NCBI GenBank assembly: GCA_964411255.1
Contig: CAYPKD010000004.1
Location: forward strand, 94,037-158,036
Source of the DNA: an uncultured Gammaproteobacteria bacterium
GTDB lineage: Bacteria > Patescibacteriota > Patescibacteriia > UBA11705 > DATKZF01
Length of the DNA: 64,000 nucleotides
Reading direction: 5' to 3'
Of this stretch, positions 4,758 through 39,368 are shown piece by piece; position 1 is the stretch's first letter; every line of letters begins with the position of its first letter. The translations under genes and the position numbers were made by a program. Under the pieces are notes generated by a model, which was not told the origin of the DNA, ran no database searches, and saw nothing but the letters and a program-made list of their open reading frames with translations.

Positions 4758-5213
4758 TTAGAGTAGTTCTTCTAATTTCTGACTTTCATCATCAGTAACC
4801 AATGAATTGCGTTTAAATATTTCAATTATTTTCCGCTTAAATTTCATTTCCTTTTCTTTATTTCTTTCAATCCTTCTTCCAATCTCAGCAGCTAAATCAG
4901 CCAATTTGTTATCCAAATACATCTTATCTGGATACTGATTTTTTACTGTCATTTTAAAATCAGATAATTCAGTTTTAACTTGACTTAGACCACCTTCAAC
5001 TTTATCAAGCCTGCCTTCAACTTTATCAAGCCTGCCTTCAACTTTATCAAGCCTGCCTTCAACTTTATCAAATCTTTTTCCCACCTCTAAAAATCCAGTT
5101 TGCACAGCACCAGCTAAATTATCAATTTTTTCATTGGTTTTCTTAAATTCTTGTTTTATTTCCTCATCCATATATATAATTTTAGCACACAAAATCAATT
5201 TAGTAAATTTCAT
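4758..5213 (-). CDS. coiled-coil protein with heptad tandem repeat (GRLDKVE)x4
   Basis: 151 aa; protein repeat 'GRLDKVEGRLDKVEGRLDKVEGRLDKVEG' encoded by a 21-bp DNA tandem repeat. Confidence 0.5.
   Translation of the reverse strand: MKFTKLILCAKIIYMDEEIKQEFKKTNEKIDNLAGAVQTGFLEVGKRFDKVEGRLDKVEGRLDKVEGRLDKVEGGLSQVKTELSDFKMTVKNQYPDKMYLDNKLADLAAEIGRRIERNKEKEMKFKRKIIEIFKRNSLVTDDESQKLEELL
4991..5075. repeat. 21-bp tandem repeat x4 (coding, within the 4758..5213 CDS)
   Basis: ccttcaactttatcaagcctg repeated in tandem. Confidence 0.8.
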
Positions 5214-27810: not shown

Positions 27811-28017
27811 ATTTGTTTAGCAATTCCTGGTAAAATTGAATCAATTGATGAAAAAAACCAAACCGCACTGGTTAATTTTGATAATTTGAAAAAAAATATC
27901 AATATCAGCTTAATTAAACCAAAAATTGATGATTTTGTTATTGTACATGCGGGTTTTGCTATTGAGATAATTGATAAAAATGAGGCAATTGAAATAAAAA
28001 GGTTATTGAAACGTTAA
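27811..28017 (+). CDS. hypC: HypC/HupF-family hydrogenase maturation chaperone, lacking an ATG start (ATT at 27811 precedes the essential Cys codon)
   Basis: Translation (I)CLAIPGKIESIDEKNQTALVNFDNL...FVIVHAGFAIEIIDKNEAIEIKRLLKR matches the HypC N-terminal 'MCLAIPxKI' signature and beta-barrel length. No in-frame ATG, GTG or TTG between the upstream stop (27736) and the Cys codon. Confidence 0.6.
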   Translation: MCLAIPGKIESIDEKNQTALVNFDNLKKNINISLIKPKIDDFVIVHAGFAIEIIDKNEAIEIKRLLKR

Positions 28018-28020
28018 ATA

Positions 28021-28050
28021 TGTGTTATGTTGCGTTAATCAATGTGTTAT
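28021..28050. repeat. left inverted repeat flanking four-helix-bundle cassette 1
   Basis: tgtgttatgttgcgttaatcaatgtgtta pairs with the reverse complement of 28427..28460 (ggggttatggttgcgttaagtgggtgtta). Confidence 0.6.
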
Positions 28051-28065
28051 ATTACGTAATTAAAT

Positions 28066-28374
28066 ATGAAAATAAAAAATATAGAAGATCTTGATGCTTG
28101 GAAGGAAGCAATACTCTTTTGTGAAATGATCTATAAGTTAGCAAACAAACTGCCAATTAAGCATCTACGTGCAAGTGCTAGAGGAGTTGCTGCCAACATT
28201 GCCGAAAGATTTGGTAGATATTTCTATAAAGAGAATCTACGTTTTTATGGTATTGCAAAAGGTTGCTTAAATGAAGTTAAGAGTGATTTAAATATCTGTC
28301 TGCGAATAGAATATATAACTCAAGAAAATTTAATGAGTATATTTTTCAAGCAGATAAGGTTGAATCAATACTAA
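28066..28374 (+). CDS. four-helix-bundle protein (23S rRNA IVS protein / Avd family)
   Basis: 'LDAWKEAILFCEMIYKLANKLP...LRASARGVAANIAERFGRYF...FYGIAKGCLNEVKSDLNIC' follows the TIGR02436/PF05635 family pattern. Confidence 0.7.
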   Translation: MKIKNIEDLDAWKEAILFCEMIYKLANKLPIKHLRASARGVAANIAERFGRYFYKENLRFYGIAKGCLNEVKSDLNICLRIEYITQENLMSIFFKQIRLNQY

Positions 28375-28426
28375 ATGGATTAATAAACAGCGTATTAAAA
28401 AGACTTAAAAATATTGCCAAATAACG

Positions 28427-28460
28427 CATACTAACACCCACTTAACGCAACCATAACCCC
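28427..28460. repeat. right inverted repeat flanking four-helix-bundle cassette 1
   Basis: Reverse complement aligns with 28021..28050 at ~23 of 29 positions with one indel. Confidence 0.6.
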
Positions 28461-28467
28461 ATGTAAC

Positions 28468-29496
28468 ATGTATAACACCATAGATACAATCAATACACTG
28501 ACTTGCAAAATAAATCATCCTGTTAAATTGATGGAACTTTGCGGCACGCATTCGCAAACCGTGGCCAAATACAATTTAAAAAGCTTGCTGCCGCAAAATA
28601 TTGAATTAATCTCCGGCCCTGGCTGCCCTATTTGCGTCACTGATCAAACTGATATTGATATTGTAATTAGCCTGGCAGAAAATAATATTCCAATTGCCAT
28701 TTATGGTGATGCTTTAACATTGCCAGGCACAAATTCCAGTCTTGAAAAGTTAAAGCAGCAAGGTAAAAAAATCCATATTGTTTATTCAACTCAAGATGCA
28801 TTAAATATTCAAAAACAAGAACCAGACTTGATTTTCTTTGGAATTGGATTTGAGACAACCACTCCAATGACAGCTTGGGCACTCAAGCAAGGTCTTAAGG
28901 TTTATTCAGCACATAAACTTTTTCCACCAGCAATGGCAGCGCTTTTACAAAATCCTGATATCCAAATCGACGGATTTATTGATCCGGGTCATGTTTCTGC
29001 AATAATTGGAGAAAAGCCTTATAAACAATTTAATGTTCCTCAAGTTATATCCGGATTTGAGCCTGAGGATGTATTAATTTCAATTCAAATGCTGCTGGAA
29101 ATGATTTTGAAAAATAAAAATGAACTTAAAAACCAATACACACGAGTTGTAAAGCCAGATGGAAACATTGAAGCCAAAAAAATCATTGAAGAAGTTTTTG
29201 AAATTTCAGATGCCAAATGGCGCGGACTTGGCAACATTCCAAACTCCGGATTAAAAATAAAAACTAAATTTCAAAATCAGGATGCGGAATATATTCATAA
29301 AGATTTAATTGAAAAAATAAAACAAAACATTGAACCAAAACAAAATAAATGCATTTGTGGTAAAATACTGCAAGGATTGGCAAAACCTGGTGATTGCCCT
29401 CTATTTGCCAAGTCTTGCACACCGGAAAATCCTCAGGGAGCGTGCATGGTTTCAGTTGAAGGGAATTGCCAGATTGAGTACAGGTTTAATAACTAA
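28468..29496 (+). CDS. hypD: hydrogenase maturation factor HypD
   Basis: 'CGTHSQ', 'GPGCPICV', 'FFGIGFETTTP', 'PGHVSAIIG', and C-terminal 'CICG...CPLF...C...GACM' Fe-S cysteine motifs typical of HypD. Confidence 0.85.
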   Translation: MYNTIDTINTLTCKINHPVKLMELCGTHSQTVAKYNLKSLLPQNIELISGPGCPICVTDQTDIDIVISLAENNIPIAIYGDALTLPGTNSSLEKLKQQGKKIHIVYSTQDALNIQKQEPDLIFFGIGFETTTPMTAWALKQGLKVYSAHKLFPPAMAALLQNPDIQIDGFIDPGHVSAIIGEKPYKQFNVPQVISGFEPEDVLISIQMLLEMILKNKNELKNQYTRVVKPDGNIEAKKIIEEVFEISDAKWRGLGNIPNSGLKIKTKFQNQDAEYIHKDLIEKIKQNIEPKQNKCICGKILQGLAKPGDCPLFAKSCTPENPQGACMVSVEGNCQIEYRFNN

Positions 29497-29501
29497 TTTG
29501 G

Positions 29502-29540
29502 GGGAGGCTGGAAGCTGGGTGTAGGTTTAGAAGCTAGAAT
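29502..29540. repeat. left inverted repeat flanking four-helix-bundle cassette 2
   Basis: gggaggctggaagctgggtgtaggtttagaagctaga pairs with the reverse complement of 30035..30071 (gggatgctggaagctaggtatgggtgtggatgctaga), ~30 of 37 identical; an extra inner copy ctccagcttccagcc sits at 29968..29982. Confidence 0.7.
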
Positions 29541-29547
29541 ATACAAT

Positions 29548-29958
29548 ATGAACAATAACAAACAACCAATTAAAAGCTTTGATGACTTATGGGTTTATAC
29601 TGAAAGTTATAATGCCTCAATTATTATCTTCTCAGAAATTCTTCCAAAATTACCAGCTGAAGAAAAATTCGATTTAAAGGATCAAATACGAAGGGCCTAC
29701 AAAGCAGTTCCACGATTGATTGCCGAGGGATATGCTAAAAGACATCAAAAGGCAGGGTTTCAAAAATACTTGGACGATGCTAACGCAGAATCCAATGAAA
29801 TGATTGTTTGCTTACGGCAATGCAGGGACTTGTATAGTGAATTTATTGATAAAGATATATGTAAAAAACTTATAGAAATCTACACAAAATGCAGCAAAGG
29901 ACTCTGCAGCCTTTCCAAAACCTGGATGAGTTTTTCTAAACTTCCCCCAAAAAAATAA
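29548..29958 (+). CDS. four-helix-bundle protein (23S rRNA IVS / Avd family), second copy
   Basis: 'DQIRRAYKAVPRLIAEGYAKRH' matches the family core (RAA-SIP-NIAEG-GR); 136 aa. Confidence 0.65.
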   Translation: MNNNKQPIKSFDDLWVYTESYNASIIIFSEILPKLPAEEKFDLKDQIRRAYKAVPRLIAEGYAKRHQKAGFQKYLDDANAESNEMIVCLRQCRDLYSEFIDKDICKKLIEIYTKCSKGLCSLSKTWMSFSKLPPKK

Positions 29959-30034
29959 TATTTCTAACTCCAGCTTCCAGCCTTCGTCAAGACTTCGGCC
30001 GGCAGGCCAAATCCACAATTCGCTTCTAAAAAAA

Positions 30035-30071
30035 TCTAGCATCCACACCCATACCTAGCTTCCAGCATCCC
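30035..30071. repeat. right inverted repeat flanking four-helix-bundle cassette 2
   Basis: See 29502..29540. Confidence 0.7.
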
Positions 30072-30097
30072 AACGAATAAATTAATCTATCTTAAAT

Positions 30098-31066
30098 ATG
30101 ATTGAATTAGAACACGGTGGCGGTGGTTATAAAAACAACCAACTAATAAAAGAACTCCGCCAAATCATTAATTTAAAAACAGACTGGACAAACATTGAAG
30201 ATGATGCAGCAATTTATGATCTTGGTGATAAAAAATTGGTTTTTACAACTGATGCTTTTATAGTTGATCCGATTTTCTTTCCAGGAGGAGATATTGGAAA
30301 AATTGCAGTTTGCGGGACCATTAATGATCTTGTTGTGATGGGAACAAAGCCATTGGGATTATCTTTAAGTATTGTAATCGAAGAAGGTTTTGCTAAAAAA
30401 GATCTTTTCAAAATAGCTGAATCCATTGATAAAATTTCAAAACAAACTAATATTCCAATTGTAACTGGTGATACAAAAGTAATTGATAAAGGAAAACTTG
30501 ATAAAATTGAAATAACCACAGCTGGAGTTGGCGTAACTGAAAAAGTAATTGACAATGGTGGTGCAAAAATTGGCGACAATATTATAACTTCCGGAGATTT
30601 AGGCGAGCATGGCGTTACTTTACTCGCCTATCGATTTGATTATCAAACTGATATAAAAAGCGACTGCAAAGCTTTATGGGAAGAATTTCAGGCAGTTGGG
30701 CCTTTATTAAACGCAGCCAAAGATCCAACTCGCGGCGGAGTGGCAGCAAATATAAATGAAATTGCAGAAAAGTCAAAAGTAAAAATTGTTTTAGACGAAA
30801 ATAAACTACCGTATAAAAAAGACGTAATTGCTTTAACGGAACTTTTAGGTATTGAATTATTTAATTTACCATCAGAAGGCCGCTTTATTGCAGCAGTTAG
30901 TGAGGAGAACACTGATGAAGCATTAAAAAAACTTCAGGAATTTAATCCTGAAGCTAAAGTGATAGGAAAATGCGTTCAAGGTGATGGCGTATTTTTGAAG
31001 ACCAAACTTGGTTCTGAGAGAAGGATTGAGGAGCCAAAGGGTAAATTGATACCGAGGATTTGCTAA
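30098..31066 (+). CDS. hypE: hydrogenase maturation factor HypE (carbamoyl dehydratase, AIR-synthase-related)
   Basis: N-terminus 'IELEHGGGGYKN', 'FTTDAFIVDPIFFPGGDIGKIAVCGTINDLVVMG', and C-terminal 'PRIC' ending with the thiocyanate-carrying Cys. Confidence 0.85.
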   Translation: MIELEHGGGGYKNNQLIKELRQIINLKTDWTNIEDDAAIYDLGDKKLVFTTDAFIVDPIFFPGGDIGKIAVCGTINDLVVMGTKPLGLSLSIVIEEGFAKKDLFKIAESIDKISKQTNIPIVTGDTKVIDKGKLDKIEITTAGVGVTEKVIDNGGAKIGDNIITSGDLGEHGVTLLAYRFDYQTDIKSDCKALWEEFQAVGPLLNAAKDPTRGGVAANINEIAEKSKVKIVLDENKLPYKKDVIALTELLGIELFNLPSEGRFIAAVSEENTDEALKKLQEFNPEAKVIGKCVQGDGVFLKTKLGSERRIEEPKGKLIPRIC

Positions 31067-33968: not shown

Positions 33969-34259
33969 ATGGCAGAATCCTTTTATCCTTATGCATGCCT
34001 AATTTTAGTCATTTTTCTTTGGGTACTTATTTGGATGGCAAAAGCTATTCATAAAAAAGAAAAACATCTTTTTGGAGGATCTATTATTTTAACAATAGCA
34101 ACCATTGCAATTCTGATTTTGTTTGGATACAAAGATGCTATTGATTGTGTTTATATGGCAATTTTCATGTCTCTTAGTTTTATGACTGCTTGCATTGGTA
34201 TTGTTCTAACCAGTGCTGGCTTACTTATTGTTTGCACGCAAACAAACCTAAAATCCTGA
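33969..34259 (+). CDS. small 3-TM membrane protein (tandem paralog A)
   Basis: TTGACA-17-TATTAT promoter at 33907-33935; RBS aggagg; paralogous to 34276..34581 ('IWMAKAIHKKEKHLFGG' vs 'IWLAWIIHKNEIHFLGG'). Confidence 0.5.
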   Translation: MAESFYPYACLILVIFLWVLIWMAKAIHKKEKHLFGGSIILTIATIAILILFGYKDAIDCVYMAIFMSLSFMTACIGIVLTSAGLLIVCTQTNLKS

Positions 34260-34275
34260 AACAAAGGAGGAAATC

Positions 34276-34581
34276 ATGGAAAATCCTGTACATCATGTAT
34301 TGATATTAACTTTGCTAGCCAATGCTATTGTGTGGTGCGTAATCTGGCTGGCCTGGATAATTCATAAAAATGAAATACATTTTTTAGGTGGAGGTATACT
34401 GGTAATAATTGGAACAGCCGGACTAATAATTATGAATGAAATCAGCCACCTGATGGATCCTGCTTATTGCTCCATAGAAGCAACAGGCTTTCTGCTTTCA
34501 ACACAAGGTATGATATTAGCTGCAATAGGATTTATTAAGGAATTAAAGAGGGCAATGAATAAATTTAGACCGCAATCATAA
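34276..34581 (+). CDS. small 3-TM membrane protein (tandem paralog B)
   Basis: RBS aaggagg; paralog of 33969..34259; terminator accgca-atcataaa-tgcggt+TTTTTT at 34569..34594. Confidence 0.5.
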   Translation: MENPVHHVLILTLLANAIVWCVIWLAWIIHKNEIHFLGGGILVIIGTAGLIIMNEISHLMDPAYCSIEATGFLLSTQGMILAAIGFIKELKRAMNKFRPQS

Positions 34582-35143: not shown

Positions 35144-36337
35144 CTAGAACTTTTCATTTCTCAAGCAATACATCATCTGCCCCAAACTCAATCCATAATC
35201 TCCCCTCTCAATATTTTTAGACATAATTACTCCATTGTTTTTCGCAACTTGACTCATAATCTTATTATTTGCCATTCCTCCTCCAAAATATATTGGTAAA
35301 TTTGAATCAGCTTTTTTCGCAATATTAATTAGCCCTTCAATAACATATTTTTGAACAGTAGCTGCCAGTCTTCCCTTATCCTTATCCAAATTATCCAAAA
35401 GCCATTCAAAAAGATAAGAGATATTTAACTCATATTGTTTTTCAATTTCTCTGTTTCTCTGTTTCTCTGTCTTTGTGTTTTTCTGCTCTTCTGTTTCTCT
35501 GTCTTTGTGTTTTTCTGTTATCCTAGGCTCTAAATCAAACGGATCTGCTGATTTCTTCTCCAGTAAATCAACGGGCTCATGTTTATAATTTCTTTCATTT
35601 TTACAAAGGCCAAGTAAAACTGAGGCTGCATCCAGTATTCTTCCAGTACTACTAGTTTCTACTGAATTAAATTTTTGTTCGTACATTTTTACAAATAAAT
35701 CAAACTCCTCCTTTTTAAAAAACTTTTCAAAAATCGACCGTATTTCAGCCGGCTTTTTTATTTTTAAAAGTATTGAAAGAAGCATTCTGGCCGGCTCTTT
35801 TATTGATAAATCCGCACCGCATAATAATTGATTTTCCAAATGCCCAATTCTTTTTATTTTATCTTTGCTTTTTTCTTTTTGATTTTGACTGATAAGGAAC
35901 ACTTCACCTCCCCAAATCTTTCCATCAAGACCATACCCTGTACCGTCTGCTGCTATACCTATAAACTTGGAGAAGCTGAGTGTGGGTATAGAAGCTAGAA
36001 TAGTGTAATCAAATAATACTGAATAAACATGCGCAATGTGATGTTGTACTTTTTCAAGCTTTGCGTCATATTTATCAGCTAATTCTTCTCCCAATTTTGA
36101 GGTTTTATATTCTGGATGCAGATCAACACATATTATATCTGGAACAAAACTATTTTTTTCCAAAAATTCAAATATAATCTTTTTATAATTTTCAAAATTA
36201 TTTTCTTCAATCAAATCACCTAGATCTTCTTGGTAATAAATCTTTCCTTTATTATAAACACAAAAATTCCCAGCTGACTCAGGTCCTAAGGCTAGGATTT
36301 TTTGATTCTTATTAATCGTCACGTCAAACCCTTTCAT
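35144..36337 (-). CDS. HypF-like carbamoyltransferase, Kae1/TsaD-like domain only (no acylphosphatase, Zn-finger or YrdC domains)
   Basis: 'VQHHIAHVYSV' (the HHxAH metal motif of the HypF Kae1-like domain), 'IGIAADGTGYG', 'GGGMANNKIM...GDYGLSLGQMMY'. Contains a charged low-complexity insert encoded by a tandem DNA repeat. Confidence 0.6.
   Translation of the reverse strand: MKGFDVTINKNQKILALGPESAGNFCVYNKGKIYYQEDLGDLIEENNFENYKKIIFEFLEKNSFVPDIICVDLHPEYKTSKLGEELADKYDAKLEKVQHHIAHVYSVLFDYTILASIPTLSFSKFIGIAADGTGYGLDGKIWGGEVFLISQNQKEKSKDKIKRIGHLENQLLCGADLSIKEPARMLLSILLKIKKPAEIRSIFEKFFKKEEFDLFVKMYEQKFNSVETSSTGRILDAASVLLGLCKNERNYKHEPVDLLEKKSADPFDLEPRITEKHKDRETEEQKNTKTEKQRNREIEKQYELNISYLFEWLLDNLDKDKGRLAATVQKYVIEGLINIAKKADSNLPIYFGGGMANNKIMSQVAKNNGVIMSKNIERGDYGLSLGQMMYCLRNEKF
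35450..35520. repeat. imperfect ~35-bp tandem repeat x2 inside the hypF-like CDS
   Basis: ttctctgtttctctgtctttgtgtttttctg repeated; encodes 'TEKHKDRETEEQKNTKTEKQRNRE'. Confidence 0.7.
35972..36003. repeat. solo copy of the cassette-2 inverted-repeat motif inside the hypF-like CDS
   Basis: gaagctgagtgtgggtatagaagctagaata versus 29511..29541 gaagctgggtgtaggtttagaagctagaata (28 of 31 identical). Confidence 0.6.
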
Positions 36338-36395: not shown

Positions 36396-37244
36396 TTATT
36401 TTGTGTTTGTTCTTACTGGAAAATAAACGCTAAATGTCGTTCCATAACGGTATATACTATCAACGTCAATCCAGCCTTTATACTTTCTTACCACCTTATC
36501 AACAATTGTCAGTCCAATGCCAGTACCCTTTCTTAATTTTGTCGTATAATACGGATCAAAAATTCTATCAACATTCTCACCCATAATTCCTATTCCCGTG
36601 TCTTCAATTGTAATTAAAACATATCTTTCTGGATTCTCTTGGTCAGGCAGAAAACCAGGCTTATTCTCAGCAATTACTATTTTTGTCATTACCTTAATAA
36701 CATTAGGACGATCATAAGCCCCCAGGGCGTCTCCTTCTTGAATCGCATCATATGCATTTATAAATAGATTCAGCAACATTTGCTGTATATCTACTGGATC
36801 AATCAAAATAGGTGGCAAATCTTCTTGAAAGCTATATTCGAACACAGCCTCAGCATGCAGGCCTTGAATAAGCGCCATTATCTCTTCAATAATTCTATTA
36901 ATATTTACTGGAATCATTGCAGCCGCAGATGGTTTTCCAAAATCCTGAAGTTGTTTTACCAGCGCTACAGTTTGATGATGCGCACATAAAGCTAACTCAC
37001 GCAGGGGGCGATCTTCATTATTATCAGTCTTTAAATCCTCGCTGTCCAGATAAAAACCAACCACAGCAAGTAAATTATTCAGCTGATGAATTACCTGGCT
37101 TGTTAGTTGGCCTAGCCCTTGCAATTGCATGGCTTTGCGCTGTCTTTGTCTGTATGGTTTTTTTTCTAAAGTTTTAAAGGCCTCAGGAGGCTGAGTTACC
37201 TCATGCCTAAATTTATTTTGATCCAATTTATCTTTATCTCCCAC
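36396..37244 (-). CDS. soluble sensor histidine kinase (HisKA + HATPase_c), no TM or sensor domain recognised
   Basis: H-box 'VIHQLNNLLAVV'; 'DTGIGIMGENVDRIFDPYYTTK...GTGIGLTIV' N/G1/F/G2 boxes. Confidence 0.75.
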   Translation of the reverse strand: MGDKDKLDQNKFRHEVTQPPEAFKTLEKKPYRQRQRKAMQLQGLGQLTSQVIHQLNNLLAVVGFYLDSEDLKTDNNEDRPLRELALCAHHQTVALVKQLQDFGKPSAAAMIPVNINRIIEEIMALIQGLHAEAVFEYSFQEDLPPILIDPVDIQQMLLNLFINAYDAIQEGDALGAYDRPNVIKVMTKIVIAENKPGFLPDQENPERYVLITIEDTGIGIMGENVDRIFDPYYTTKLRKGTGIGLTIVDKVVRKYKGWIDVDSIYRYGTTFSVYFPVRTNTK

Positions 37245-37365
37245 ATCCCTCTCCTTTTTGTCTTTTTGTTTTTATTTCAAAAAACTAGTTATATTATAAC
37301 ATTTTTTTATCATCTTCAATGTTACACTGTGGATTAAAAAAACGTTTTTTTGAAAAACGTTTTTA

Positions 37366-38196
37366 TCATTGATAACAAATAGTTGGAAAAAATATTTCAA
37401 ACATAGATCCACATCCGATTCGACTTAAAACCTTTATAAAACCTCCATATTTTCCAACAATGCTCCTGACTATATGAAGACCTATTCCAGTGCCCTCTTC
37501 TTTAGTAGTAAAATAGGGTACAAAAATTTTATTAAAATTTTCTGGGTCTATGCCGCAGCCATTATCACTGATTGACATTCTAACATAATTTCCCGGATGT
37601 ATTCCTTGTAAACTATATTTTTTCGTATCACTAATCACAAATTCTTTAACACTAATACCTACTTCCCAAATGCTATTTGGATTATTACTTTCTGCTGCAT
37701 CCCATATTGCTTCTCTGGCATTTAATATTAAACACATTATCACTTGCTGTAAATCTATAGGATCAATCATAATTTTTGTTGTTTCATCCAAATCCAAAGC
37801 CAATTCAAAACATCTATCAATTAAGCCCCACTTAATAACTTTTGCAATCGAATCATTAATATCGATTGGCTCAGGCTCTGGCAGAGACAATCGCCCGAAT
37901 TCTAAAATTCTTCTGCATAATCGATGTGACTGCTGGCATATTTCTTCAGCTTCTGTTAAATATTCTTCCTTTCTTTGTTCAGAAGCTTGATTAGCAGCCA
38001 TCTTCAAATTCATATCAATAACCACCAATTGACTTCGAAGCTGATGAGCAATCCTAACAGTCGATTCACCAATTGTCTGCATGATAAGTAACTGTCTTTC
38101 CTGCATTTCAATACTTTCATCTGATTCAGGCGGCAAAATTTGTTCATCATTACCTATTACAATACTACACCTTTGTCTTTCACCTTTTTCTTGCAT
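37366..38196 (-). CDS. soluble sensor histidine kinase, second tandem copy
   Basis: H-box 'RIAHQLRSQLVVI'; 'DNGCGIDPENFNKIFVPYFTTKEEGTGIGLHIV'. Confidence 0.75.
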   Translation of the reverse strand: MQEKGERQRCSIVIGNDEQILPPESDESIEMQERQLLIMQTIGESTVRIAHQLRSQLVVIDMNLKMAANQASEQRKEEYLTEAEEICQQSHRLCRRILEFGRLSLPEPEPIDINDSIAKVIKWGLIDRCFELALDLDETTKIMIDPIDLQQVIMCLILNAREAIWDAAESNNPNSIWEVGISVKEFVISDTKKYSLQGIHPGNYVRMSISDNGCGIDPENFNKIFVPYFTTKEEGTGIGLHIVRSIVGKYGGFIKVLSRIGCGSMFEIFFPTICYQ

Positions 38197-38306
38197 TATT
38201 CCTCCTTGTCAAATAACTAAACGAATTATAGCAAGCTCTTTTATAAAAATCAAAAAGGCAGCCATTTTAGCTGCCTAGCATCTAATCACTCATTACTAAT
38301 TACCCA

Positions 38307-39368
38307 TTACTTATTTACAAAAACCGTCTGCGTCGGATATGCGAATTCTATACTTTCTTCATTAAATTTCTTATAAATGTCAAGGTTGATCTGCTGCTTT
38401 GCCTCTGCAAAAACATCAAACTCTTTTGACTTGACCTCATAAACAATTTTAAAAATTAAAGCAGAATCTCCAAAATTTTGAAATTTGCAACGGACAAATT
38501 CAAGATCCTTGTGTTTAGTAATTATATCCTCAATAATTTTTGGAATTGATTCCAATTTAGCTGAGGAAGTGTCATAGGTTACACCTAATTCAAAACTATC
38601 ACGACGCTTTTGCATTTTTCTAAAGTTCTGCACTCTGGCATTTGTCAATTCTCTGTTTGAAATAACCAATTCTTCACCATTCATTGTTCGAAGTCTTGAA
38701 GTTTTTAGTCCAATTTTTTCAACTGTGCCACTATCAGATCCGACCTGGATAAAATCCCCAATTTTAAATGGCTTATCAATATAAATGGAAAATGAGCTAA
38801 AAATATCTTCTAAAATATTCTGCAAGGCTAAAGCAATAGCAATACCGCCGATTCCTAATCCAGCTATTAATGCAGTCACATCAAAGCCTAGATTTCCAAG
38901 TATCAAAACAATTCCCACTGCCCACAAAACGATCTTTACTATGATTTTTAATGCTCTCATCATTGACTGGCTGATTGTTTCCTTATCAGCGGATTTTTCC
39001 ATGTACTTTTTTGCAGAATAATCTACCAATCTCTCTAAAGCATGAATTACTTCATAAACAATGACCAATAAAAACAAAACACTAATTACCTTGTGCACCA
39101 TTGCCGGAAAAGTTAATGCTTTAATTCCTAAATACAAGGCGACAAAAAAGTAAAACGGTGGCCTGATTTTTCGAAAAATCTCTATTAAAATGTCATCAAA
39201 TTCCGTCTCAGTCTTCTCCGACAGCTTTTTTAGTTTTGATAAAATAACTGATTGAAAAATTTTCAATACAAGAATTGTGCCAATGAAAATGGCTAAGGCC
39301 AAAACATATTCATATCCTGTATTTGACCAAAATTCTATAGCTTTTAAGGCTTCAATAATTTTGTCCAT
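38307..39368 (-). CDS. MscS-family small-conductance mechanosensitive channel
   Basis: Three N-terminal TM helices and the conserved beta-domain 'KIGDFIQVGSDSGTVEKIGLKTSRLRTMNGEELVISNRELTNARVQNF'. Confidence 0.8.
   Translation of the reverse strand: MDKIIEALKAIEFWSNTGYEYVLALAIFIGTILVLKIFQSVILSKLKKLSEKTETEFDDILIEIFRKIRPPFYFFVALYLGIKALTFPAMVHKVISVLFLLVIVYEVIHALERLVDYSAKKYMEKSADKETISQSMMRALKIIVKIVLWAVGIVLILGNLGFDVTALIAGLGIGGIAIALALQNILEDIFSSFSIYIDKPFKIGDFIQVGSDSGTVEKIGLKTSRLRTMNGEELVISNRELTNARVQNFRKMQKRRDSFELGVTYDTSSAKLESIPKIIEDIITKHKDLEFVRCKFQNFGDSALIFKIVYEVKSKEFDVFAEAKQQINLDIYKKFNEESIEFAYPTQTVFVNK

Follow-up and report, generated by a model that had tools for sequence, protein, structure and literature searches.

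What are two small four-helix-bundle (4HB) genes, of the family that is also found in intervening sequences (IVSs) of 23S rRNA, doing between the hydrogenase-maturation genes of a bacterial operon? The question is raised by a stretch of 64 kb from contig CAYPKD010000004.1 of an uncultured bacterium (genome GC content 33.6%), which is called the window here; coordinates are those of the window and on its + strand unless stated otherwise. The co-directional genes hypC, hypD and hypE are separated there by two cassettes of ~450-580 bp, each consisting of a G/U-rich 5' arm made of short repeats, a PF05635 Avd-like 4HB gene and a complementary 3' arm. Cassette 1 (28018-28467) is a 450-nt insertion in place of a hypC-hypD junction of 0-13 nt, and cassette 2 (29497-30079) takes up everything from the hypD stop to the hypE leader. 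The hyp cassettes are shown below to be discrete insertion/deletion units which, across genomes, sit in sense orientation and tightly between co-oriented genes. The explanation favored here, and considered fairly likely, is that they are mobile cassettes of the IVS type that reside in mRNA, that the operon transcript folds back on itself at their arms, with RNase III probably cutting the paired arms, and that hypCDE received two of them in independent insertions.

The state of both sites was compared in five syntenic relatives (loci L084, L003, L088, L089 and L085), with one close relative annotated as 'Patescibacteria group bacterium'. HypD identity is 73-87% among the window, L084, L003, L088 and L089; L085 has a partial HypD with 75-86% identity to these. 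Both sites are filled in the window, the hypC-hypD site with a decayed gene. L084 and L003 carry a cassette at the hypD-hypE site and have an empty hypC-hypD site, in the form of a 13-nt spacer in L084 and of an ATGA stop/start overlap in L003. The reverse is found in L088 and L089, where the hypC-hypD site holds a cassette with an intact 126-aa homologue and the hypD-hypE site is empty (a 100-nt spacer in L088, 11 nt in L089). L085 does not cover the hypC-hypD site and has a NUDIX-like gene instead of cassette 2 at the other one. In the distant hyp operons L086 and L087, hypC and hypD are contiguous. This pattern of presence and absence identifies the cassettes as discrete units, each gained or cleanly lost several times in this small clade. 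Sporadic presence among close relatives is also a trait of IVSs. A preliminary description of this DNA had proposed inserted modular elements and had expected uninterrupted hypCDE genes in relatives to speak against the idea; the relatives with empty sites instead confirm insertion.

Possible further marks of turnover are seen at these sites and at another one. The NUDIX-like open reading frame (ORF) of L085 lies at 535-995 of that locus, and a stretch stranded before hypE, ATGCCCACTAAAGTGGGGTAG, matches the 3' end of the longer hypD of L089; this marks the hypD-hypE spacer as a repeated insertion site. The 100-nt spacer of L088 (1560-1661) combines a purine-rich half, AAAAGGAAAAATGAAAAA, with a complementary pyrimidine-rich half, TTTTTCCTTTTTCATTTTT, and could be a remnant stem that has lost its ORF or an unrelated hairpin. 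A third 4HB cassette stands beside an mscS-like gene in L003 and L088. Just after the corresponding gene of the window (38307-39368) there is only GTAATGGGTAATTAGTAATGAGTGATTAGATGCTAGG followed by a terminator-like hairpin (~38270-38310, - strand); the former resembles a solitary, degenerate 5' arm, and the site may be the footprint of a lost cassette.

The family assignment made in the preliminary description, which placed two IVS/Avd-family genes between the hyp genes, holds for both ORFs at the positions it gave. The gene of cassette 1, 4HB-1, matches PF05635 with an E-value of 4.8e-18 and 65.8 bits (cut-off 33.8) and TIGR02436 with 54.9 bits (cut-off 24). The corresponding values for 4HB-2 of cassette 2 (29548-29958, intact, 136 aa) are 4.5e-17, 62.6 bits and 54.7 bits. 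An AlphaFold2 model of 4HB-2 is a four-helix bundle predicted with a pLDDT of 91.6. The top Protein Data Bank matches found with Foldseek are Xcc0516 (2gsc, TM-score 0.75/0.86) and BT_0352 (2rld), followed by Avd chains; for the latter (8ub7, 8ubb, 4dwl and 8ub8), TM-scores are 0.63-0.69 when normalized to the query and 0.73-0.80 when normalized to Avd. The 4HB protein is basic, with an isoelectric point of ~9.

The likeness to Avd raises the possibility that the 4HB genes are what remains of a diversity-generating retroelement (DGR). Avd of DGRs has a homologous, basic four-helix-bundle fold, and in the matched DGR structures (8ub7, 8ubb and others) it is complexed with reverse transcriptase (RT) and RNA, which suggests nucleic-acid binding. 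Beyond the fold, there is a weak match to the Avd equivalog model DivGenRetAVD (E = 0.0025), which reaches 18 bits against a cut-off of 80. In the window, to which the search was confined, no RT domain is encoded among the 10 neighboring ORFs, direct repeats resembling a template/variable pair (at least 45 nt, gene paralogues aside) are absent within 30 kb, and viral contigs hold no relatives of the cassette-2 subfamily. A DGR remnant is thus highly improbable, in agreement with the preliminary description, which had seen no support for a classical DGR. The only long direct repeats within those 30 kb are two tandem paralogous pairs, of two ~100-aa ORFs at 33969-34581 and of two HATPase_c genes at 36396-38196.

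How firmly are the genes enclosed? A scan of a 4-kb region returned 147 inverted-repeat pairs, and the two longest are those that enclose the cassettes: 28001-28037 with 28422-28458 for cassette 1 (37 nt, 73%) and 29502-29538 with 30035-30071 for cassette 2 (37 nt, 81%). An inner copy of the cassette-2 repeat was recovered at 29970-29990. The repeats of 30-37 nt that the preliminary description had reported, inner copy included, are therefore present, and its account needs revision as to their extent and make-up, the arms being arrays of short repeated units ~45-60 nt long. The 5' arm of cassette 1 (28019-28062) repeats units such as GTGTTAT, GCGTTAA and ACGTAA; its 3' arm (28419-28477) consists of TAACGC, TAACAC and ATAAC units and extends into the first hypD codons. 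In cassette 2, a G/U-rich 5' arm (29495-29539) composed of GAGGCTGG, GAAGCTGG and GAAGCTAG units faces a C/A-rich outer 3' arm (30034-30079).

Terminal inverted repeats that form a long enclosing stem, as known from IVSs, are found when these regions are folded as RNA. The long-range closing stems of both cassettes are kept in the minimum-free-energy and centroid folds, as the preliminary description had predicted, and an RNAalifold consensus of five related cassettes retains the closing stem. The energies of the arm-only duplexes are -30.2 kcal/mol for cassette 1 (z -4.4), -55.0 kcal/mol for cassette 2 with its outer 3' arm (z -9.1) and -42.1 kcal/mol with the inner copy (z -5.6). Low-complexity, AT-rich intergenic DNA does produce many short pairs by chance, as the 147 pairs in 4 kb illustrate. 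That the arms arose in this way has next to no probability, given that duplexes as stable as the observed ones did not occur in any of 500 shuffles and that orthologous and paralogous cassettes, and cassettes of different phyla, have conserved arms. A further candidate, local hairpins inside each arm (CGA-N-GCYCGU-W-UCG), was rejected for lack of covariation between N and W in the same arm. No Rfam family matches the arms, a phmmer search with both proteins against all ORFs of the window found no further cassette copies, and promoter and terminator scans gave the same counts as shuffled sequence, with nothing specific to the cassettes.

The two cassettes differ in condition. The preliminary description had treated cassette 1 as a gene cassette, and the insertion with its arms stands while the gene (28066-28424) proves to be a pseudogene. 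Its ORF part covers 28066-28374 (102 aa). Compared with the intact 126-aa homologues P0122 and P0123, 4HB-1 lacks eight residues and has a G-to-R exchange in the NIAEGFGR motif; a frameshift near 28333-28345 places the C terminus, NGLINSVLKRLKNIAK, in another frame up to the TAA at 28422-28424. The last helix is thus out of frame, and only 4HB-2 is an intact full-length gene. With these lesions, the gene of cassette 1, as read from its sequence, is a decayed pseudogene. Its subfamily is small, with 23 proteins, and all five members with a named source are annotated as Patescibacteria. The arm unit of the subfamily is GCGTTAT with a period of ~10 nt. Arrays of this unit like that of the cassette-1 5' arm also occur in L088, L089 and L090, and one copy of the subfamily lies between the genes for acetate kinase and murJ.

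Cassette 1 is closely fitted to the genes on either side. The outer 5' strand of its stem is the last 17 nt of hypC, with pairing starting at 28001. hypC (27811-28017; PF01455, 8.7e-21) appears to begin with ATT, followed by the codon of the essential cysteine (27811-27816 together), and no in-frame ATG, GTG or TTG is available. The ATT is kept in L084 (3781-3786), and L003 has GTG at the same position (5051-5056); the ATT is likely a non-canonical start codon. On the other side, the first codons of hypD (28465-28480; ATG TAT AAC ACC, encoding MYNT) double as a TATAAC unit of the 3' arm. The ~15 N-terminal residues of this HypD are unlike those of cassette-free relatives, and the insertion of cassette 1 seems to have re-created the hypD start. 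hypD as a whole (28468-29496) is readily recognized by PF01924 (2.7e-126) and TIGR00075 (1.5e-125), as is hypE (30098-31066) by TIGR02124 (1.6e-103).

Cassette 2 carries a gene that is being maintained. Among the window, L084 and L003, dN/dS is 0.04-0.05 for 4HB-2 and 0.06-0.11 for hypD and hypE, ratios that are approximate with dS saturated; by this measure 4HB-2 is under strong purifying selection. The 4HB-2 proteins are 84-85% identical in every pair of the three, while HypD is 87% identical between the window and L084 and 77% identical to that of L003. At synonymous sites, the window and L084 have diverged more in 4HB-2 (pS 0.70) than in hypD (0.57). These figures hint that cassette 2 was replaced or gene-converted and did not strictly descend together with its host operon. 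Its 3' side has an additional complexity. An inner copy of the 3' arm (29960-29991) sits where the 3' arm lies in L084 and L003. Between it and the outer arm is the core (29992-30033) of an extra segment, with a small GGCCGGCAGGCC hairpin. The whole segment, ~72 nt long (~29975-30046), shows up in an alignment as inserted sequence that four related cassettes lack, is present in the window copy only, overlaps parts of both the inner and the outer 3' arm and duplicates the start of the arm. Arm duplication is also seen in the second cassette of L003, there on the 5' side.

Beyond the hyp operons, the cassette-2 subfamily is large and dispersed. It has 2310 relatives in the protein collection, and its presence was confirmed for 326 places of species-representative genomes, of which 80 loci were fetched for the analyses of context. 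These span Patescibacteria, Omnitrophota, Planctomycetota, Desulfobacterota, Chloroflexota, Bacteroidota, Zixibacteria, Cloacimonadota and others, with protein identities of 51-63%, and cassettes of this type are found between co-oriented neighbors in more than 15 phyla. A flanking inverted repeat above the 95th percentile of shifted controls is present in 75% of 75 loci. No rRNA gene was found in the window or at any of the 80 loci. A tRNA gene is in the fetched flank of five of the 80, and three cassettes, those of L031, L043 and L056, directly adjoin tRNA genes and may be co-transcribed with them. The contig of L034, which holds one cassette of this bacterial subfamily, was binned as a Thermoplasmata archaeon (a metagenome-assembled genome), a case that could reflect transfer or mis-binning. 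No PADLOC defence model was matched.

This distribution bears on the idea that the cassettes are a host-adapted regulatory module, with 4HB proteins serving as accessories of hydrogenase maturation and stems tuning hyp stoichiometry. Cassette 2 with a conserved protein is indeed kept in three related hyp operons, and the third cassette of L003 and L088 lies beside hypF. Still, the same subfamily, at 55-63% identity, populates unrelated operons of more than 15 phyla, close relatives that retain hypCDE have empty sites at both positions, and one of the two genes is a pseudogene. A hyp-specific function is largely refuted by where the subfamily occurs, and a regulatory module of this kind is very unlikely; together with a DGR remnant and chance, hyp-specific function can be regarded as effectively excluded.

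If the cassettes are not tied to hyp function, what kind of mobile unit are they? They are placed inside operons. The cassette gene is co-oriented with its upstream neighbor in 75 of 82 loci and with its downstream neighbor in 69 of 81, and both neighbors are co-oriented in 63 of 77 loci (82%), compared with 58% expected from other adjacent pairs at the same loci (p = 8e-6). With median gaps of 86 and 73 nt to the neighbors, the spacers consist of little more than the arms. Paralogous copies in the same genome delimit the unit, with similarity confined to the arms and the ORF, from ~40-70 nt before the ATG to ~30-60 nt past the stop. In L068 such copies share 87% identity along 515 nt that begin at -48 relative to the ATG and end at +48 relative to the stop; in L003 the value is 76% over 506 nt, and for L061/L081 it is 74% over 513 nt. 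Homology that stops at the arm edges would equally suit a transposable element that acts at the DNA level, the arms being terminal inverted repeats, or protein-binding iterons, for a recombinase (trans-acting or not yet recognized) or for the 4HB protein itself, and RNA pairing being incidental. The organization of the arms as arrays of short units with a period of ~7-11 nt is in keeping with that explanation as well, whereas a strong sense bias inside operons would be unexpected for an autonomous DNA transposon.

The arms themselves can be compared at 56 non-redundant loci. They share a 19-nt core, GGTTRCGANGCYCGTWTCG, at a distance of 15-50 nt upstream of the ATG, and the complement of this core is located just past the stop codon or overlaps it. 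In an ungapped alignment, 73.3% of the cells of the core pair, compared with 66.7% after shuffling (a value of the observed size was reached in none of 500 shuffles) and 30-38% when the arms are slid against each other. Three core pairs switch on both sides (AU 25/GC 21; AU 33/CG 18; UA 32/CG 22), and complementarity of the arms is thereby shown to be maintained through compensatory changes. Two positions are conserved as non-pairs, one with R opposite A (45/56) and one that is mostly A·A or U·U (37/56). For a DNA-level element, the conservation of arm sequence across phyla, beyond complementarity, is what one would expect; the two conserved mismatches in the duplex core would mean that its two ends differ systematically, which does not fit it.

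On the reading of IVS-type cassettes carried in mRNA, these observations can be arranged in a simple sequence of events. The cassette would be transcribed as part of the hyp polycistron, and its arms would pair as an imperfect duplex of 35-45 bp from which the 4HB gene is looped out. Pairing of this kind would place the upstream stop codon beside the downstream start codon, and in this way an insertion could be tolerated in a tightly coupled operon. At cassette 1, the hypC stop, located within the 5' strand, would be brought near the hypD start, 10 nt beyond the 3' strand, mimicking the ATGA coupling of L003. RNase III would then probably cut the duplex, a step with precedent in rRNA IVSs and in Correia elements, freeing a monocistronic 4HB mRNA and splitting the hyp transcript. 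The 4HB protein may, more speculatively, bind the repeat core that is conserved in the arms around its gene.

Several results weigh against this account, and some of them are shared by its main competitor. The 56 core loci had been selected for a match of both arms to one consensus, and what the covariation mostly does is to set two or three sub-lineages apart, which amounts to few independent events; a mechanism based on DNA terminal repeats predicts this covariation equally well. Two tests that might have separated RNA from DNA pairing do not favor RNA: G·U outnumbers A·C among the mismatches in the arms (154 vs 118, p = 0.03), which is weak as such a test, and the sense strand has the better duplex energy in 60 of 85 loci, a bias that shifted control regions show equally (195 vs 98), which leaves this comparison uninformative. 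No transposase, recombinase or RT linked to the cassettes was found, and no target-site duplication is recognizable at the junctions of L068, cassette 1 or cassette 2. The arm sequences had been expected to recur in the genome, and this expectation failed for the 64-kb window, where arm patterns allowing up to three mismatches do not recur elsewhere. The duplex and the cleavage of hyp mRNA by RNase III, probable as the latter may be, are inferred. A search for an RNase III signature motif gave none in the window, which is only part of a contig with a length of 364 kb or more, and is uninformative. The missing transposase and target-site duplication also count against a DNA-level element, as does the behavior of the homologous rRNA IVSs, which act as RNA stems (PMC4990558). 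On balance such an element is unlikely, if a possibility to be kept seriously in mind, and mobile IVS-type cassettes in mRNA are the preferred explanation of the locus.

Among the other hydrogenase-maturation genes of the window, the sole HypF-like gene (35144-36337, - strand; 397 aa) consists of the C-terminal Kae1-like domains only (HypF_C, HypF_C_2). It is without the acylphosphatase, zinc-finger and YrdC parts, and the same short form is found in L003 and L088.

If the cassettes are what they seem, ORF-bearing IVSs of rRNA and thousands of orphan genes annotated as 'four helix bundle protein' appear as one type of cassette with arms that are both conserved and complementary. The occurrence of 4HB genes in operons as unrelated as hyp, ackA-murJ and probably cas would then be explained without functional association, and for annotation this means that 4HB genes should not be read as functional partners of their neighbors. 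A further prediction is that RNase III divides operon mRNAs into segments at these stems. There is also the question of how a 500-bp element that encodes only one small helical protein spreads across phyla. A bolder proposal, advanced tentatively and considered rather improbable as it stands, is that PF05635 4HB genes serve as the cargo, and perhaps as the engine, of very widespread and so far unrecognized minimal mobile elements. In such elements a pentameric, Avd-like protein would recognize its own arm core, as RNA or DNA, and would help the unit to spread without an encoded transposase, recombinase or RT, the IVSs of rRNA being the special case that was noticed first.

Comparison with described elements helps to place the cassettes. 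No account of repeat-bounded 4HB cassettes as insertion units of mRNA was found in the literature, the coverage of which was incomplete, so an earlier description is possible. Integron gene cassettes, with a single attC recombination site 3' of a promoterless ORF and a place in an array beside an integrase, were considered and rejected, as in the hyp cassettes the ORF has repeats on either side and an integrase domain is not encoded by any of the 10 neighboring ORFs scanned. A closer likeness exists to Correia elements (NEMIS) and other MITEs (miniature inverted-repeat transposable elements), which are small, have terminal inverted repeats and lie between genes. Correia elements are co-transcribed and fold in the mRNA, and in Neisseria mRNAs these inverted-repeat elements bind RNase III and are cut (PMC2649163). 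MITEs, in turn, are non-coding, ~100-160 bp long and flanked by target-site duplications, and a genome contains tens to hundreds of near-identical copies. The cassettes, unlike MITEs, carry a conserved gene (with an ORF of 102-136 aa), occur in few copies per genome and lack target duplications, and their arms are unique in the window. Membership among MITEs or Correia-type elements, as non-coding units of less than ~300 bp with many copies and a duplication, was accordingly rejected.

The closest match is to the IVSs of 23S rRNA from Leptospira, Coxiella burnetii and Xanthomonas, which encode proteins of the same family (S23p/PF05635) in an ORF within long imperfect inverted repeats. Both kinds of element have short tandem repeats just upstream of the ORF, GACAGAT heptamers in the case of Coxiella, where the S23p-bearing IVS with its tandem heptamers before the ORF is excised by RNase III (PMC4990558). 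They also share a size of ~430-760 nt, a sporadic distribution that suggests horizontal transfer and decay of the ORF in some copies (PMC4990558). Unlike the 23S rRNA IVSs, the hyp cassettes lie in intergenic spacers of mRNA and none in an rRNA helix, with cleavage here a prediction, and unlike S23p of Coxiella, which is seemingly not made, 4HB-2 shows clear purifying selection on the protein. The cassettes are thus of the IVS type by protein family and anatomy and are not IVSs by location, which for IVSs is within an rRNA gene in place of a helix tip. ORFs of the 23S_rRNA_IVP family are known from rRNA insertions in the candidate phyla radiation (CPR) (PMC11270868). CRISPR-cas operons, too, are reported to contain genes of this family, one of them located between cmr3 and cmr2 in Pleurocapsa (PCC 7327), and these were read as functionally associated with cas genes (PMC3936711). 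Compared by description only, these are likewise 4HB genes between the genes of an operon; flanking repeats are not described there. From this resemblance, the 23S_rRNA_IVP genes of cas operons are probably the same insertion phenomenon as the cassettes between hypC, hypD and hypE.

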